NCBI GenBank assembly: GCA_026983735.1
Contig: JALSTN010000186.1
Coordinates: forward strand, 1-49,306
From: Saprospiraceae bacterium
GTDB taxonomy: Bacteria > Bacteroidota > Bacteroidia > Chitinophagales > Saprospiraceae
Direction of reading: 5' to 3'
Length of the DNA: 49,306 nt
Shown: piece by piece, positions 42,376 through 48,943 of the stretch
Position numbering within the stretch: position 1 is the first letter of the stretch
Layout of the letters: every line of letters begins with the position of its first letter
The notes under the pieces: generated by a model
The model's database searches: none
Told to the model about the DNA's origin: nothing
What the model saw: only the letters and a program-made list of their open reading frames with translations
Program-made: the position numbers and the translations under genes

Positions 42376-42999
42376 ATACTTTTTGATTCAACAGGTATAT
42401 ATTATTGCTTAAATTATTCATATTTTTTTGTCATACGCTATATCCAAATTTGATTGATTCATTAAACAAATAATATAGAATAGATTTCCCGGTAACTAGC
42501 AAATTGTCATCCAAAACACACATTAGAATTTGCAATAAGGCTCCATTAATTTGCCAAACAGAGATGCGAACAAAGACAATCAGTATAATCACTTGATTCT
42601 GATGACCAAATGTGATTGAGTAGAATAATAGTTTTGGGTTATTTTAAGGCTCTGATTTTGGATTTCCGGGGTAATGAAGATAAAAACTACTGTGAGACAA
42701 CCCACCTGAAATTATATTTGGAAAAGATTGGCCCAAAATATTCCTGTCCAAGTACGAACGAGCTCTTAACACAAGAATTCTTACCTATAAATTGAGTGTC
42801 AATAAATGCAGGCCTCCACTCCTAAAATATAAATCATCCATAGGATAAGAGATAACCCCTATTCTAAACCTTATCTTTCTCTCTATTCTAAGTCTTATGA
42901 TATAAGGAAATGTTAAAATTTTCAAATTCCTATTGCAATTCTTATAAATCAGCTTACCTTTAAGCTTTGATATCTAAAACTCGCAAAACTCAACCTATC

Positions 43000-44685
43000 A
43001 TGAAAAAAATTTTTACTTTACTTGTTATCATGTCTATTGCTCTAGGCATACAAGCTCAGGATTCCAGAGTGGTGCTTATTGAGCAGTTTACACAAGCCTC
43101 CTGCCCGCCTTGTGCTCCGGCAAATGTTAGAATCCAAAATATACTAAAAAACTACCCCGAGACGGAAGTAGTAATACTTCGTTATCAGGCCTCTTTCCCG
43201 GGATTTGACCCCATGTATAACCATAACAAAAAAGATGTAAACAACAAGCAGAGCTATTACAGTATTCGCTCTGTGCCCGGCTCTGTAATTGATGGACAGA
43301 TGGGCCCGGATCATCCCAATACTATCATTAATACTACCAACTTAAATGCCCGCAAAAGAGTTGCTCCAGGATGCAGAATTGAATGCACTCCCTCAACATC
43401 AAAGGATGGAAAGCAAATTATGGTACATGCAAAGATAACCGCACTTAAGGATTTTGTCGGAAATGAAGCAGCTACTATAGCCATTATAGAAAAACACATT
43501 CACTTTGACAAACCACCTGGAGGGAATGGCGAAAAGGATTTCTTTAATGTAATGAAAAAGCTATTGCCTACGGCCAATGGTCAGCCACTACCTAAATTAA
43601 AGAAAGGAGAGGCTTATGAATTTGATGTTGAGTGGGAACTTCAAAATATATACAGCATTCCTCAAGTAGCCATGATCGCTTTTGTTCAGCAGAGAACTTC
43701 TAAGGAGGTATACCAGGCCCTTCATATTCCCCAAATCATACAGTCCCCGTATGCTAATGATGCGACCATCGGATGGATCTCCATAGACAATGGACCTGAA
43801 GATAATACGACCTGCAATACTTATGCATCCCCCCAAATCGAATTAATAAGCTTAGGCAATAAACCAATGACTACTGCCACAATAGAATATTCTGTCAATG
43901 GTAGTACCCCTCAACAATTCACCTGGAAGGGAAATCTGGGATTCTACGAAAGTGAAGTTGTCCAACTTAATGAAATTTCTTTTGGACTTACTGAAGATAA
44001 TACTATGAAGGCTAAAATCATATCAGTAAATGAAGAAAATGATGAAAATGCATCTAATAACACATATGAGGATTTATTTGATCTTGCGCCGATAACTTCC
44101 AACAAAATGATCGTTGACCTAAGATCGATGACGCGCCCCAATAGAATGTCATTTTCTATTATGAATTCATTAAAAGAAGAGGTTTACTCTGCAGGTCCCT
44201 TTAAGAGTTCTGAGAAATCCATTAAGAAGGAAATCGATCTTAAACCAAATGAGTGTTATGAAATAATCATTAATAATACCGCCCCCGGAAGTTCAAATGG
44301 ACGAGTTACCGTGAAAGATGATGCAGGCCAAGTAATCTATGCTACTCGACATATTCCTTATGGGTTGAACAGAACACACTTTACTACTAATCCTACCATC
44401 AGTGCAAAAGATGTCACAGGCAACTCTAATTTGAGTTGGAATATTTCACCTAATCCGGCGGGCTATTCGACCACTTTATCCGTAACTACGGATACAAGAC
44501 TAAGCGCCTCAATCTCCGTCCAATCACTAATGGGACAAGAATTACGATCATTTGACGTCCTCTTAACAAAAGGAGATAATTCTATCCATCTTCCGCTTGA
44601 AAATTTATCAAATGGAGTGTACTTTATCACATTGCGTTATAACGACACAATCCCGATAACAAAAAAATTAATTGTTCGACACTGA
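43000..44685 (+). CDS. Secreted Omp28-related / thioredoxin-fold-like protein with a T9SS type A C-terminal sorting domain
   Basis: Signal peptide MKKIFTLLVIMSIALGIQAQ, then VVLIEQFTQASCPPCAP near the mature N-terminus. The C-terminal ~80 aa (SPNPAGYSTTLSV...LSNGVYFITL...KKLIV) match the type A Por secretion tail pattern. Confidence 0.7.
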   Translation: MKKIFTLLVIMSIALGIQAQDSRVVLIEQFTQASCPPCAPANVRIQNILKNYPETEVVILRYQASFPGFDPMYNHNKKDVNNKQSYYSIRSVPGSVIDGQMGPDHPNTIINTTNLNARKRVAPGCRIECTPSTSKDGKQIMVHAKITALKDFVGNEAATIAIIEKHIHFDKPPGGNGEKDFFNVMKKLLPTANGQPLPKLKKGEAYEFDVEWELQNIYSIPQVAMIAFVQQRTSKEVYQALHIPQIIQSPYANDATIGWISIDNGPEDNTTCNTYASPQIELISLGNKPMTTATIEYSVNGSTPQQFTWKGNLGFYESEVVQLNEISFGLTEDNTMKAKIISVNEENDENASNNTYEDLFDLAPITSNKMIVDLRSMTRPNRMSFSIMNSLKEEVYSAGPFKSSEKSIKKEIDLKPNECYEIIINNTAPGSSNGRVTVKDDAGQVIYATRHIPYGLNRTHFTTNPTISAKDVTGNSNLSWNISPNPAGYSTTLSVTTDTRLSASISVQSLMGQELRSFDVLLTKGDNSIHLPLENLSNGVYFITLRYNDTIPITKKLIVRH

Positions 44686-44705
44686 TTTTTTGGATGATCT
44701 AATAT

Positions 44706-44741
44706 AAAAAAAGCCCATGCTGTAAAGTGTGGGCTTTTTTT
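44706..44741 (+). terminator. Rho-independent terminator after the T9SS type A cargo gene
   Basis: AAAAAAGCCCATGCT-GTAA-AGTGTGGGCTTTTTTT: a GC-cored stem followed by a 7-T run. Confidence 0.85.
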
Positions 44742-45004
44742 ATAACCTGACATTTGCGAGGCAATCGTTTTAACTTTAACTTGTCAATCACCATTTATTC
44801 GTACTAATTAATGTACTTTACCCAAAGGTGCTTTGCCCCCCGAATCATCATCGAAATAAATTGAGTAATACACTGTCCATTTGGAATCCTGGCGTTTTGA
44901 ATCTCCCCCCTTTTCTTACAACTTGCGATTATTCGCACTATAGTAATGTTTTAGGATGTAAAGTGTATATGAGGGAGGCATGAACAATTATTACAGCCCA
45001 ACGT

Positions 45005-45029
45005 TTTAAGTGAACTTAAATAATTATTT
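45005..45029. promoter_or_regulatory. Candidate DtxR/MntR-type operator: two adjacent, slightly overlapping palindromes 15-39 nt upstream of the repressor gene ATG
   Basis: TTTAAGTgaACTTAAA (45005-45020, 7-bp arms) and AAATAATTATTT (45018-45029, a perfect palindrome). Confidence 0.3.
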
Positions 45030-45043
45030 AGACAAACATAACT

Positions 45044-45709
45044 ATGTCGACAGTTTCATTAGAAAATTACCTGAAGACCATTTATCATCTTTCAGATGGA
45101 GGGCGATCAATCGTCTCAACACAAGAAGTTTCAAAAGCACTCGATTACTCTAATCCCGCCATCACAGACATGGCGAAGAAAATGAAAGAGAAGGGACTCC
45201 TTGAATACACTAAATATAAAGGTATGAGATTGTCCCCCCGAGGGACAAAGGAAGCGCTTAGAATTATTAGAATTCATCGACTATGGGAGACTTTCTTAAT
45301 GGAAGTTTTGGGATACGACTGGCAAGAAGTGCATGAAGAGGCAGAACTATTGGAACATAGCACATCGGATAAATTAGCAGAAAAACTGGCCATCTATCTT
45401 GACTACCCTGAAAGAGATCCTCATGGAGCTCCGATTCCCGGGATCGATGGCCAATGGCCAGCCCCTAGCTTCGATTTGCTTAGGTTTGACCATGTTGTCA
45501 AACCTGGTATATATACCATTCAGCGAGTATCTGACAATAACCCTGAGTTCCTTCAAATTATCACACAATTGGGCCTTGCGCTCTTTACTGAGATAGAACT
45601 CGTCGAGCATTGCTCTTTTGATGAAAGTAAAAGAATCTTAATTCGGGGAAAAGAGACATTTTTAAGCAATAAGATTAGTCAAAGAATATTTATAAGCGAA
45701 GCCAAATAG
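45044..45709 (+). CDS. DtxR/MntR-family metal-dependent transcriptional repressor with a C-terminal FeoA/SH3-like domain
   Basis: ENYLKTIY wHTH N-terminus, IRIHRLWETFL, VHEEAELLEH and DPHGAPIP. The ligand positions H78, E82, H97, E101, E104 and H105 are all present. Confidence 0.85.
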   Translation: MSTVSLENYLKTIYHLSDGGRSIVSTQEVSKALDYSNPAITDMAKKMKEKGLLEYTKYKGMRLSPRGTKEALRIIRIHRLWETFLMEVLGYDWQEVHEEAELLEHSTSDKLAEKLAIYLDYPERDPHGAPIPGIDGQWPAPSFDLLRFDHVVKPGIYTIQRVSDNNPEFLQIITQLGLALFTEIELVEHCSFDESKRILIRGKETFLSNKISQRIFISEAK

Positions 45710-45710
45710 T

Positions 45711-46736
45711 ATGCATTATTTATGGACTTTTATCCTCTTTATCCTATTCCTTATTATGATTATAGTAGTGGGGCGTAACTGGAATAATAAGCGTAAAGCT
45801 TCCAAATTAAAACACCTATCAGATGATATATTAAAATACTTTTTTGATTGTGAATACAGAGCAGCCCCTTGCCGCTTAGATGGTTTATATGGTCACCTCC
45901 ATCTTCCTCCTCAAAAAATTGCAAATGGAATAGGACATCTTATCGAAAAAGCATTCATTCGACCTAATCGAGACAATAGTTTCATCCTCACAGAATCCGG
46001 AAGAAAACAGGCATTAAAAATCATACGAAAACATCGTCTTATCGAAAGATATTTGGCCGATGAGACCGGAACCTTACCTGAGCAATGGCATACCAAAGCA
46101 GATAGATTTGAACATTTCATATCAGATAACGAAATAGAAAATATTGTACGACGAACAGGTCATCCTGTCTTTGACCCGCATGGTGATCCCATTCCAACTG
46201 AGAGTGGAGAAATTCCAGCTAGCGTCAAGGAGTTTTCCTTACTTGATTTAGAAGAAGGACAGCGCGCCATTATTAATCATATAGAGGATGAACCTACTTC
46301 TATATTCATTGAAGTAACTAAAATGGGGCTTCACCCTGGATTAAATATCTTTTTAAAGAAAAAGACATCATCCAAGTTCGTAATAACAAGTCATTTAGGT
46401 GAATCCACCTTGACACCGATTCAAGCTGGAGCGCTTAATATTAAAAAGGAAATTAGAAAAAAAAATTCGTCTAAAATAACGCTTCACACACTGAATCAAA
46501 TCCCAATCGGACAAACCATGATCATCTATGGAATCTCCAATGATCTCAGGGGAAGACAACGACGCAGGCTACTAGACTTAGGATTTGTGCCTGGCAATTC
46601 AGTTACACCTACCTTATCTAATGCGTCCAAGGGTACTCGAGCCTATGAAATTCTCAATACTTTGATCGCATTAAGAGCAGAACAATCTACTAAAATAATT
46701 GTAACTCCCAATCAACATACCTTAGAGGAAGAATGA
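45711..46736 (+). CDS. Membrane-anchored DtxR-like protein fused to two FeoA domains
   Basis: N-terminal TM WTFILFILFLIMIIVVG. DtxR-like core: IRKHRLIERYL, WHTKADRFEH, DPHGDPIP. FeoA-like segment 1 runs about aa 173-245 and segment 2 about aa 257-332, the latter with RGRQRRRLLDLGFVPG. It starts 1 nt after the upstream stop, and its own stop overlaps the feoB ATG (ATGA). Confidence 0.7.
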   Translation: MHYLWTFILFILFLIMIIVVGRNWNNKRKASKLKHLSDDILKYFFDCEYRAAPCRLDGLYGHLHLPPQKIANGIGHLIEKAFIRPNRDNSFILTESGRKQALKIIRKHRLIERYLADETGTLPEQWHTKADRFEHFISDNEIENIVRRTGHPVFDPHGDPIPTESGEIPASVKEFSLLDLEEGQRAIINHIEDEPTSIFIEVTKMGLHPGLNIFLKKKTSSKFVITSHLGESTLTPIQAGALNIKKEIRKKNSSKITLHTLNQIPIGQTMIIYGISNDLRGRQRRRLLDLGFVPGNSVTPTLSNASKGTRAYEILNTLIALRAEQSTKIIVTPNQHTLEEE

Positions 46737-48943
46737 ATAGTAAAGAAACCATAGCGTGCAATACCTGCCCGGTGCATCATTCCGGCAATCTAATTCAACT
46801 CGGAATTCAGATGGGAGACTTCGACTACATCGTCGCACTTGCCGGTAATCCGAATACCGGGAAAAGCACTGTTTTCAACAGACTTACAGGACTTAAACAA
46901 CATACCGGAAACTGGCCGGGAAAAACTGTGGGCAGGGCGGAAGGTGGTTTCGTTTATCATGCTCAAAAATTCAAACTAATTGATTTACCGGGAACATACT
47001 CTTTACTTTCCACAAGTGAAGATGAAGAAATTGCGCGAGATTTTATACTATTTGGTAAACCGGATGTCACGGTCATTGTGGTAGATGCCACCAGATTGGA
47101 GCGCAACTTAAACCTAACGCTTCAAATCCTAGAGATTACTCCCAGAGCTGTTCTTTGTGTTAATCTTATCGACGAAGCACGTCGACAAGGCATTGAAGTC
47201 GATACGCGGGCTCTTGCCAGAAAATTAGGGATACCTGTGGTGGCCTGTGCTGCTCGTTCAGGCGAAGGCTTCCCTGAATTACTAGATCGTATACATGAAG
47301 TGGCATCCGGGCAATACCCCACTCGCCCAAAACCACTTTGGACTCCCCCAAAAGAACTTAAAAAGTCTTTAAAACAACTCGAAGCGGCACTTACTCGAAC
47401 ATTCCCAAACTTAAATAATGTACGATGGGTTGCTTTGAGACTCTTAGAAGGGGACCCCTCAATTACTCGATCTGTGAAAGATGGATCCATTCAAAACTTA
47501 ATAGAACAAGAGTCTTCATCATCCTCTTTTCTCGTCGGACAAGAGGTGATTGATTTAAGTAGGAAACTTAGATGGGACATCGGAATTTTTACTCACGATA
47601 TCATACTTGAGGCCATCTACCGTAGAGCTAAAAAAATCGCTTCAGAAGTTGAAATTAGAAAGGGGGAGGATTCACCTACCTCTTGGGACCAACAATTGGA
47701 TAGGATCGTTACTCATCCTCTTTGGGGAAGCTTGATTATGATAGGATTGCTTGCTTTAGTGTTTTGGCTTACTATAGTCGGAGCAAATTATCCTTCCCAG
47801 TGGTTGTCAGACCTCTTGGTCGGAAAGATTCATCCTTGGTTGAAAAGTGCCTTGAGTGACATAGGGGCGCCTTGGTGGCTAACCGGCGTAATAGTTGATG
47901 GGGCTTGGTTAGCAGGTGCTTGGGTTGTGAGTGTAATGCTCCCTCCAATGGCCATCTTCTTCCCATTATTTACTCTATTGGAGGACTTTGGCTATCTCCC
48001 AAGAGTATCCTTTAATATGGATCATTTATTTCGAAAAGTGGGAGCACATGGCAAGCAAGCGCTCACGATGGCTATGGGTTTTGGATGCAATGCTGCAGGT
48101 GTTGTCGCAACTCGAATTATAGACAGCCCAAGAGAACGCTTAGTAGCCATTATCACGAATAACTTTTCACTCTGCAATGGGCGATGGCCAACGCAAATTA
48201 TCATCGCATCTATATTTATTGGTGCATTAGCACCAAAGGGGTGGTCCACTGTATCAACTGCTCTTGCTGTTGTAGGTGTAGCGTTATTAGGCATCTTTTT
48301 CAGTTTTATCGTTTCGTGGGTATTGAGCAAATCTCTTTTGCGCGGGGAAGTCTCTTCCTACGCGTTAGAACTCCCCCCTTACCGACCACCTAACTTTTGG
48401 CAAACGCTATATACCTCTATTATTGACAGAACACTTATTGTCCTTTGGAGAGCAGTTGTATTTGCCATTCCCGCCGGTATTGTGATTTGGGCAGTAAGTA
48501 ATATCCATTGGCAACATGAGCCTTTAGCTCTTCATATTGTACACTTCCTTAATCCAGCGGCTTTAATCTTTGGTTTAAACGGGGTAATTTTTTTAGCCTT
48601 CATAATTGCCATACCTGCTAACGAACTTGTCCTACCTGTCGTATTAATGTTAACTGCACTCCTATTGGGTTTAAATACCGGGCAACAACAAGGGGTATTA
48701 TTTGAACCTGACTCCCAACAAATCATCAGCGATATTCTTCATTCAGGCGGTTGGACATTGCTCACAGCGATCAATCTTATGCTCTTTAGTCTGCTGCACA
48801 ATCCATGCTCCACTACTATTTATACCATTTACAAAGAGACAAAAAGCATCAAATGGACATCTGTCGCTACATTCCTTCCAATATTGATGGGACTAACCAT
48901 TACTTTCATCGTCACTAAATTCTGGAACCTTTTTATCCAATAG
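46733..48943 (+). CDS. feoB: Ferrous iron transporter FeoB
   Basis: G-domain motifs GNPNTGKST and DLPGTYSL, followed by a polytopic membrane domain. 736 aa from the ATG at 46733. An alternative ATG at 46811 would give a canonical N-terminus. Confidence 0.95.
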   Translation: MNSKETIACNTCPVHHSGNLIQLGIQMGDFDYIVALAGNPNTGKSTVFNRLTGLKQHTGNWPGKTVGRAEGGFVYHAQKFKLIDLPGTYSLLSTSEDEEIARDFILFGKPDVTVIVVDATRLERNLNLTLQILEITPRAVLCVNLIDEARRQGIEVDTRALARKLGIPVVACAARSGEGFPELLDRIHEVASGQYPTRPKPLWTPPKELKKSLKQLEAALTRTFPNLNNVRWVALRLLEGDPSITRSVKDGSIQNLIEQESSSSSFLVGQEVIDLSRKLRWDIGIFTHDIILEAIYRRAKKIASEVEIRKGEDSPTSWDQQLDRIVTHPLWGSLIMIGLLALVFWLTIVGANYPSQWLSDLLVGKIHPWLKSALSDIGAPWWLTGVIVDGAWLAGAWVVSVMLPPMAIFFPLFTLLEDFGYLPRVSFNMDHLFRKVGAHGKQALTMAMGFGCNAAGVVATRIIDSPRERLVAIITNNFSLCNGRWPTQIIIASIFIGALAPKGWSTVSTALAVVGVALLGIFFSFIVSWVLSKSLLRGEVSSYALELPPYRPPNFWQTLYTSIIDRTLIVLWRAVVFAIPAGIVIWAVSNIHWQHEPLALHIVHFLNPAALIFGLNGVIFLAFIIAIPANELVLPVVLMLTALLLGLNTGQQQGVLFEPDSQQIISDILHSGGWTLLTAINLMLFSLLHNPCSTTIYTIYKETKSIKWTSVATFLPILMGLTITFIVTKFWNLFIQ

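Follow-up and report, generated by a model that had tools for sequence, protein, structure and literature searches.

What does a DtxR-type metal sensor do when it begins with a hydrophobic helix, ends with FeoA-like domains and is encoded directly upstream of the transporter gene feoB? The question is raised by a 341-aa open reading frame (ORF; 45711-46736, + strand) in a contig of a Saprospiraceae bacterium (Bacteroidota; GenBank assembly GCA_026983735.1, contig JALSTN010000186.1), of which a stretch of 49,306 nucleotides (nt), referred to here as the window, was analyzed. An earlier note, made from the sequence alone, described the protein as a membrane-tethered DtxR-like sensor with two FeoA domains and suggested that it gates or assembles FeoB post-translationally. 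That interpretation is partly supported. The predicted transmembrane anchor is real and conserved across phyla, and the anchored protein probably links metal sensing directly to the FeoB transporter. In the favored explanation, the protein would serve FeoB as an anchored FeoA subunit and metal sensor and control it post-translationally, with a soluble paralogue handling transcription; the chance that this is correct is judged to be about even.

The earlier note knew of no characterized example of such a protein. This does not hold for the core architecture, which is known from PgMntR (PG1044) of Porphyromonas gingivalis, a DtxR protein with twin FeoA domains encoded in the feoB2 operon (Zhang et al. 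2016; PMC4805248). The membrane-anchored form is what is new: the literature searched, the coverage of which is incomplete, yielded no account of a DtxR/MntR or DtxR-FeoA protein with a membrane anchor.

The operon runs from a soluble DtxR/MntR gene through the gene of the anchored DtxR-like twin-FeoA protein to feoB, with a 1-nt gap at the first junction and a 4-nt overlap at the second. The TAG of the soluble paralogue (45707-45709) ends 1 nt before the ATG of the anchored gene, and the TGA of the anchored gene shares bases with the feoB ATG (ATGA at 46733-46736). The ORF and the ATGA overlap had already been described and are confirmed here; the 221-aa canonical DtxR/MntR gene (45044-45709) and a palindrome in front of it (45005-45020) had been overlooked.

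Membrane anchor and metal-binding core

The anchored protein consists of the following parts, in which a winged helix-turn-helix (wHTH) follows the anchor and its linker.

45711..46736, + strand: membrane-anchored DtxR-like protein with twin FeoA/SH3 domains, 341 aa
45717..45773, + strand: N-terminal transmembrane anchor, aa 3-21, predicted N-out/C-in (hydrophobicity, charges, AlphaFold, conservation)
45774..45818, + strand: basic juxtamembrane linker, aa 22-36, a predicted helix running into α1 of the wHTH (AlphaFold)
45819..45992, + strand: diverged DtxR-type wHTH, aa 37-94, with ligand D39 and C47/C54 (hhalign, structure alignment)
45993..46199, + strand: dimerization/metal domain, aa 95-163, with H108, E112, H127, D131, E134, H135 and D155-P-H157-G-D-P (Pfam Fe_dep_repr_C)
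46236..46448, + strand: first SH3/FeoA-like domain, aa 176-246, with the invariant H190-I-E-D-E-P (Pfam FeoA, 25.2 bits)
46488..46706, + strand: second, genuine FeoA domain, aa 260-332, G-x-Q-R-R-R-L-x-D-L-G-x-V-P-G (Pfam FeoA, 44.4 bits, 1.7e-11)

The hydrophobic helix described earlier is confirmed as aa 3-21 (YLWTFILFILFLIMIIVVG), which has a mean Kyte-Doolittle value of 2.79 and an unweighted Hessa sum of -4.6 kcal/mol; no other segment of the protein does better than +10. There is no lysine or arginine (K/R) before the helix and there are six in the following 15 residues. Since the charges sit only on the C-terminal flank, the segment is predicted to act as an N-out/C-in signal anchor and not as a signal peptide. 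An N-terminal hydrophobic helix is found in 118 of the 120 closest database homologues, and a comparable segment occurs in 0 of 20 soluble paralogues (maximum 19-residue Kyte-Doolittle value 1.49); therefore, the anchor helix is not due to chance. A scan of GTDB with one genome per species gave at least 598 matches, and the best 80 loci were examined. The helix is present at 56 of the 62 loci with an evaluable N-terminus, where its usual sequel is a conserved FWPxxG motif and then a basic stretch. The loci belong to at least seven phyla (Bacteroidota, Ignavibacteriota, Calditrichota, Gemmatimonadota, Acidobacteriota, Chloroflexota and Verrucomicrobiota). A phmmer search with the N-terminal 100 aa against 1.84 billion representatives gave 7 matches, a result that is unusable for estimating family size because the N-terminus of the window protein is too divergent. 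AlphaFold predicts a single helix over aa 2-49 of the window protein, with a predicted local distance difference test score (pLDDT) above 90 for the N-terminal helix. In the typical member P0086 it predicts a transmembrane helix at 4-21, a break at FWPxxG and a helix at 28-56 that continues into α1.

The N-terminus could also be an artefact of start-codon annotation or a cleaved signal peptide, which would make the protein an ordinary soluble regulator. Two of the 120 homologues (P0003 and P0019, which appear N-terminally truncated) are called without the helix, and genuinely helix-free lineages exist, namely Porphyromonas, Prevotella and Tannerella (PMC4805248, S1 Fig) and some Verrucomicrobiota (L036, L043). 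However, the sole in-frame ATG downstream before residue 204 falls within the helix, and the helix, FWPxxG motif and basic stretch are kept at the protein level in at least seven phyla. There is also no positive n-region and no AxA-type cleavage site, the charges lie C-terminal of the helix, and the helix is modeled confidently in both the window protein and P0086. Such an artefact is therefore very improbable and was rejected on the position of the internal ATG, the 118/120 conservation and the charge pattern.

Behind the anchor lies a DtxR-type core. Pfam Fe_dep_repr_C (PF02742) matches aa 94-163 with 85.1 bits against a cut-off of 27 (3e-24). An AlphaFold2 model of the anchored protein, built from 118 sequences, has a pLDDT of 91.3 and a predicted template modeling score (pTM) of 0.83. 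Its top Foldseek match is the Mn-dependent repressor 5zr6 with a target TM-score of 0.88, and SloR, IdeR, ScaR and MtsR are also matched. A profile of 27 homologues aligns to DtxR-family structures from wHTH helix 1 through the SH3 domain, with 5zr4 at 1e-35 followed by DR2539, ScaR, IdeR and DtxR.

The six ligands named in the earlier note (H108, E112, H127, D131, E134 and H135) and the DPHGDP motif (155-160) are present as described. Residues D39 (DtxR M10), H108 (H79), E112 (E83), H127 (H98), E134 (E105) and H135 (H106) are invariant in 116-118 homologues. Position 131 (DtxR C102) is D in 87%, C in 7% and E in 6% of 116 homologues. Further invariant columns are D155, H157 and the SH3 motif H190-I-E-D-E-P (H190, E192, D193, E194). 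In the profile alignment D193 falls opposite an SH3-domain residue of ScaR, presumably its ligand D160. Judged by these columns, the metal-binding core is under strong constraint. The oxygen-rich, hard-ligand set resembles that of Mn-type sensors, and Fe2+ is also possible.

The wHTH carries a pair of cysteines, C47 and C54 (motif D-C-E-Y-x4-C, 45849-45872, aa 47-54), located at the end of α1 and before α2. The pair is at least 90% conserved in 118 Bacteroidota-type homologues; PgMntR and many of the Acidobacteriota and Chloroflexota proteins do not have it. Its role could lie in redox chemistry or in binding an additional metal ion.

The second FeoA domain and its linkage to feoB

Scored as isolated segments (aa 170-255 and aa 256-341), the C-terminal half of the protein matches Pfam FeoA (PF04023) twice, with 25.2 bits at aa 176-225 and 44.4 bits at aa 260-333. 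Both scores exceed the cut-off of 23, so that the earlier count of two tandem FeoA segments stands as far as Pfam is concerned; however, the first match is the standard third (SH3) domain of DtxR, and the second alone is an extra FeoA. The first domain aligns with the SH3 domains of ScaR, IdeR and DtxR and has modeled β-strands at 185-246, and the AlphaFold model contains two β-barrel regions in the C-terminal half. The profile of the C-terminal domain matches solved FeoA structures with values from 2e-12 to 8e-4, the best being 7r7b, the FeoA domain of B. fragilis FeoAB.

The partner gene and its N-terminal extension are as follows.

46733..48943, + strand: feoB, 736 aa, without a FeoA domain (Pfam, TIGR00437)
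46733..46831, + strand: FeoB N-terminal extension, aa 1-33, before the G1 motif, with C9-x-x-C12-P-x-H15-H16

The FeoB protein contains the Pfam domains FeoB_N, FeoB_Cyto, Gate (twice) and FeoB_C and matches TIGR00437 with 389.8 bits, above the cut-off. A search of Pfam and NCBIfam gave no FeoA domain on it. The earlier note had called for a survey of how often the architecture sits upstream of feoB, and in all 74 informative loci feoB lies directly downstream on the same strand and encodes, as in the window, a FeoB that has no FeoA of its own. The remaining 6 of the 80 loci are uninformative, being contig ends (L070, L075, L079) or ordinary actinobacterial DtxR genes (L077, L078, L080). The two genes overlap at 49 of 74 junctions (29 of them by 4 nt) and lie within a gap of 20 nt or less at 66 of 74, with a median of -4 nt, where the feoB start was taken as the codon nearest the upstream stop, a rule that is biased to small gaps. 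Translation of the two genes is coupled in most of the genomes.

A hidden Markov model built on the second FeoA domain gave matches in the window and 73 loci, and each has exactly one FeoA within 5 kb on either side. That single FeoA is the C-terminus of the anchored protein, except at the actinobacterial locus L069. According to a survey, all bacterial Feo operons carry feoA or a FeoA domain borne by FeoB (PMC8749426), and contacts between FeoA and NFeoB stabilize GTP-bound FeoB (PMC8980893). Since the C-terminal domain is the sole FeoA near feoB, the FeoB has none of its own and the survey leads one to expect a FeoA in the operon, the simplest reading of these sequences is that the C-terminal domain serves as the FeoA of the adjacent FeoB. 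In encoding a bona fide FeoA domain directly upstream of feoB and coupled to it, the gene is like feoA in other operons, and the FeoAB fusions of Bacteroidota and Firmicutes are a precedent for a FeoA fused to a Feo-related polypeptide (PMC8980893). The difference is that FeoA is fused here to a membrane-anchored metal sensor and is neither attached to FeoB nor free-standing. Sestok et al. (2022) dropped DtxR-fused FeoA proteins from their survey as not Feo-related (PMC8980893).

The partner FeoBs share an N-terminal motif, C-x-x-C-P-x-H(H/N)...N-L-x-K-L-G, in 64 of 74 cases, which lies outside Pfam FeoB_N. In the window its residues C9, C12, H15 and H16 are encoded at 46757-46780, within an extension of about 30 residues that precedes the G1 motif. 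The extension has a weak zf-C2H2-like Pfam match (E 0.005) that is under the cut-off, and its role could lie in metal binding or in docking. A metal or Fe-S site shared between C47/C54 of the anchored protein and the CxxCPxH of FeoB was considered and rejected. The two do not covary and each occurs without the other at many loci, the FeoB motif being near-universal (64/74 loci) and the C47/C54 pair clade-restricted.

Some relatives depart from the usual gene structure. At L083 (5001-7217), the Flavobacteriales neighborhood of P0086, FeoB is split into a 260-aa soluble part with the G-domain and helical domain and a 476-aa membrane part that begins 3 nt later. The split arrangement was found in many assemblies. 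Where NFeoB is soluble, an anchored FeoA partner could help keep it at the membrane. At L069 (5001-5993, Actinomycetospora chlora) a helix-free DtxR-like gene is followed by a separate 102-aa FeoA ORF and feoB, which looks like an unfused arrangement and a possible origin of the DtxR-FeoA fusion. A 96%-identical relative (GCA_054023015.1; L081, 5023-6480) has its feoB orthologue called in two pieces of 147 aa and 317 aa; in this draft assembly the split call is probably a frameshift or assembly error and not biology.

The diverged wHTH, the soluble paralogue and the candidate operator

The earlier description of a full DtxR wHTH and core is sound for the core, but the wHTH is recognizable by profile and fold only. 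Pfam Fe_dep_repress (PF01325) has no match to the whole protein or to the isolated aa 30-97 at E<=10, and it is absent from the precomputed domain lists of all 120 closest homologues. In contrast, hhalign aligns the anchored wHTH with that of the soluble paralogues with a probability of 96.8% (E 2e-10) at 12% identity. Profile comparison thus indicates that the anchored wHTH, though strongly diverged, is genuinely homologous to the DtxR N-domain.

The same result bears on the suggestion that the wHTH is FeoC-like. FeoC of Gammaproteobacteria is a small wHTH protein that binds the FeoB N-domain as a post-translational modulator, and its likeness to the diverged wHTH is one of functional analogy only. 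No FeoC (PF09012) match was obtained on aa 30-97 at E<=10. In addition, feoC lies downstream of feoB and its product has a Cys-rich Fe-S wing, whereas here the gene lies upstream and the Cys pair is not in the wing. Homology to FeoC was rejected on the missing Pfam match and the hhalign homology to the DtxR N-domain, and this part of the earlier note is not upheld.

The operon begins with two further features.

45005..45020, strand not assigned: candidate DtxR-family operator, palindrome TTTAAGTGAACTTAAA, 24 nt 5' of the first operon gene
45044..45709, + strand: soluble canonical DtxR/MntR-type paralogue, 221 aa, with wHTH, dimerization/metal and SH3 domains (Pfam)

The soluble paralogue matches Pfam Fe_dep_repress (5e-16), Fe_dep_repr_C (2e-29) and FeoA (2e-6). 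Its top NCBIfam match is MntR, under the equivalog cut-off, and no hydrophobic segment is present in it. The anchored protein shares with canonical regulators of this kind (DtxR, IdeR, ScaR, SloR, MtsR) the three-domain fold (Foldseek TM 0.74-0.89; profile E to 1e-35) and the primary and ancillary ligand positions, including the SH3-domain carboxylate. The canonical proteins differ in being soluble, in having a net basic wHTH that matches PF01325 and a basic wing, and in lacking both a second FeoA and any obligatory link with feoB.

The anchored and soluble proteins of the same operons were compared in the window and 19 loci. Column identity is similar in the dimerization domain (0.54 anchored versus 0.56 soluble) but lower for the anchored protein in the recognition helix (0.23 versus 0.45) and the wing (0.29 versus 0.45). 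The net charge of the wHTH is about -3 in the anchored and about +3 in the soluble protein, and K/R occupies the wing position equivalent to DtxR R60 in 6% of anchored versus 70% of soluble sequences. In addition, the AlphaFold models of the window protein and P0086 show α1 lengthened at its N-terminal end by a confidently predicted helix of at least about 17 residues. Residues 3-6 of DtxR must uncoil, as they would otherwise clash with DNA (PMC7762939). The extended α1 would point toward the position of DNA in DtxR complexes, which would argue against DNA binding by the anchored protein.

The palindrome at 45005-45020 has perfect arms (TTTAAG-TGAA-CTTAAA). The motif TTA[AG]G-N4-8-C[TC]TAA, scanned with at most one mismatch against a background of 0.05 per 200 nt, occurs upstream of 21 of 23 related operons whose first gene is the soluble paralogue. 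Bacteroidota and Ignavibacteriota have the half-site TTAAG; Acidobacteriota, Chloroflexota and Gemmatimonadota have TTAGG, which is of the classical DtxR/IdeR type. Since this DtxR-box is conserved upstream, the operons appear to be under DtxR-family transcriptional control. The palindrome is probably the operator of the operon, and the canonical soluble paralogue is the natural candidate to bind it. A second AT-rich perfect palindrome, TAAATAATTATTTA (45017-45030), lies 14 nt 5' of the 45044 ATG and overlaps the end of the candidate operator; it may be an extension of that operator or have arisen by chance in AT-rich DNA. Further upstream, a hairpin with 15-nt arms and a T-run (44703-44744) resembles a terminator closing a 572-aa gene (42967-44685) and marks where the promoter region of the metal operon begins. 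The homologue of the 572-aa gene in the 96%-identical relative has a Por_Secre_tail (type IX secretion system C-terminal sorting) domain, which assigns the window to Bacteroidota.

A soluble-type paralogue lies within about 1.5 kb upstream, co-directional or divergent, in about 32 of 74 related loci. In Proteiniphilum (L082, 4201-11053) a 125-bp intergenic region separates it from the anchored gene and feoB, which are transcribed in the opposite direction and have a ferric reductase gene, a gene for XusB and one for a TonB-dependent receptor beside them. This iron-acquisition neighborhood argues against a purely Mn role of the family.

Control of FeoB weighed against DNA binding

PgMntR, the sole characterized member of the family, shares with the anchored protein its domain order (wHTH, dimerization/metal, SH3/FeoA, second FeoA) and an operon partner that is a FeoB without FeoA; the product of feoB2 (PG1043) is the Mn2+ transporter FeoB2 (PMC4805248). 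Mapped from published residue numbers and domain limits, the ligands pair (anchored/PgMntR) as D39/D19, H108/H85, E112/E89, H127/H104, D131/C108, E134/E111, H135/H112, D155/D132, H157/H134, H190/H166, D193/D169 and E194/E170. The offset is constant at 23-24 residues, and 20 at the N-terminus. PgMntR therefore belongs to the same subfamily but is without the anchor, which makes up the roughly 20 residues missing from its N-terminus. It differs in having no hydrophobic helix, with an N-terminus about 20 residues shorter, in having Cys in place of D131 and in lacking the DCEY...C pair. Recombinant PgMntR is a soluble dimer in which each monomer takes up 3 Mn or 2 Fe with dissociation constants (Kd) of 1e-8 to 1e-11 M, and deletion of its second FeoA abolishes both Mn and DNA binding (PMC4805248). 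S1 Fig of that paper aligns homologues with hydrophobic N-termini from Cytophaga, Thermophagus, Formosa, Ignavibacterium, Melioribacter, Roseiflexus and Anaerolinea. The paper itself does not mention a transmembrane segment, discusses PgMntR solely as a repressor and leaves aside the idea that its second FeoA could be the FeoA of FeoB.

The combination of a DNA-binding-type domain and a single transmembrane helix also recalls ToxR and CadC. Those proteins have a free N-terminal DNA-binding domain and a periplasmic sensor past the helix. The anchored protein differs in that the helix itself is N-terminal, with 2-3 residues before it and no periplasmic domain, and in that sensing is cytoplasmic.

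The N-terminal helix, predicted from its flanking charges to be N-out/C-in, holds the cytoplasmic DtxR-fold dimerization/metal module at the membrane. In the favored explanation, the second FeoA domain would dock on the G-domain of FeoB, by analogy with other Feo systems. When cytoplasmic Mn2+ or Fe2+ rises, metal binding would rigidify the wHTH/dimerization/SH3 core, as it does in DtxR. The rigidified core may then alter how the tethered FeoA, and possibly the diverged wHTH, engages FeoB, and uptake would be lowered post-translationally. Transcription of the operon would be controlled mainly by the soluble paralogue through the palindrome at 45005-45020.

Several points weigh against this explanation. 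One concerns PgMntR, the only member studied biochemically, which is soluble and binds DNA in vitro; it shifts its own promoter in an electrophoretic mobility shift assay with some specificity (PMC4805248). Loss of DNA binding can therefore not be assumed for the anchored protein. Its recognition helix, in 116 sequences, retains S at DtxR position 37 in 83% and K/R at positions 40, 43 and 47 in 72%, 59% and 67%. A description of the wHTH as clearly degenerate, drawn from the 19 cross-phylum paralogue pairs, was softened in view of these residues. The operator motif also occurs 5' of 13 of 44 operons that do not start with a soluble paralogue, so that the anchored protein is a possible operator binder where no paralogue adjoins. 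In addition, the steric argument from α1 draws on a predicted helix. Finally, although no other FeoA was found within the 49-kb window, a stand-alone feoA elsewhere in the genome is possible.

These points could be taken together to mean that the protein is a membrane-tethered yet DNA-binding, metal-dependent repressor, in effect an anchored PgMntR, which autoregulates the operon via the DtxR-box and whose FeoA domains are structural or also serve FeoB. The tether would then merely co-localize the regulator, the nascent operon and the transporter. The PgMntR with the matching ligand set binds its own promoter in a Mn2+-enhanced manner (PMC4805248), the wHTH fold is intact, contact positions 37, 40, 43 and 47 are kept, the operator motif is found without an adjacent soluble paralogue, and databases name the family as DtxR-family transcriptional regulators. 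However, a second repressor would be redundant, since the operon already encodes a canonical soluble one. The wHTH is acidic, has lost the basic wing residue and has a recognition helix about half as conserved as that of the paralogue; PF01325 fails on all 120 close homologues; and the predicted extension of α1 would run toward the DNA position. The promoter binding of PgMntR is also weak, requiring 700-1000 nM protein, and although Mn2+ enhances it, it is metal-independent, occurring in ethylenediaminetetraacetic acid (EDTA) as well (PMC4805248), and it needs the basic second FeoA domain. A tethered repressor would also leave unexplained why the only FeoA of the operon sits on the anchored protein. 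This alternative is considered unlikely, though it carries real weight. The evidence on DNA binding by the anchored protein is mixed, and the earlier suggestion that it may not be a DNA-binding repressor gains from the diverged wHTH and the separate canonical repressor and loses from the mobility shift of PgMntR and the retained S and K/R residues.

The protein might instead be anchored where metal leaves FeoB on the cytoplasmic side and serve there as a metal acceptor or chaperone. Its high-affinity DtxR-type sites would capture the emerging Mn2+ or Fe2+ and pass it on or buffer it, with FeoA merely docking the module to FeoB. As a variant, it might sequester the soluble paralogue at the membrane by heterodimerizing and so couple transcription to the state of the transporter. 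The invariant multi-site ligand set beside FeoB at the membrane, the metal content and affinity of PgMntR, and the similar conservation of the dimerization domains of both paralogues would fit such roles. However, there is no precedent for a DtxR-fold chaperone, sites of such tightness are ill-suited to hand-off, and heterodimerization is pure conjecture, with about half of the loci having no adjacent soluble paralogue. Both versions are improbable. Control of FeoB by an anchored FeoA and metal sensor is still favored over these alternatives.

The broader form of this explanation is that a DtxR-family metalloregulator was exapted from transcription factor to transporter subunit, so that FeoB importers in hundreds of species from at least seven phyla are gated by an anchored sensor fused to FeoA. 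This is more tentative, its chances being put somewhat short of even. If true, product feedback would act on Feo at the protein level, FeoA would be the regulatory switch of FeoB, and the original task of binding DNA would have stayed with the soluble paralogue of the operon. The control of FeoB activity and the role of FeoA are long-standing open questions in the most widespread bacterial Fe2+ uptake system, and a widely conserved fusion of FeoA to a metal sensor, anchored by the transporter, suggests that FeoA may be a metal-responsive switch. The family has likely been mis-annotated systematically, with thousands of database entries named 'DtxR family transcriptional regulator'; the Feo survey discarded the DtxR-FeoA fusions (PMC8980893), and the sole biochemical study, that of PgMntR, read the subfamily only as a repressor. 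The family is large, spread over many phyla and probably mis-annotated, and it bears directly on the role of FeoA and on the post-translational control of Feo.

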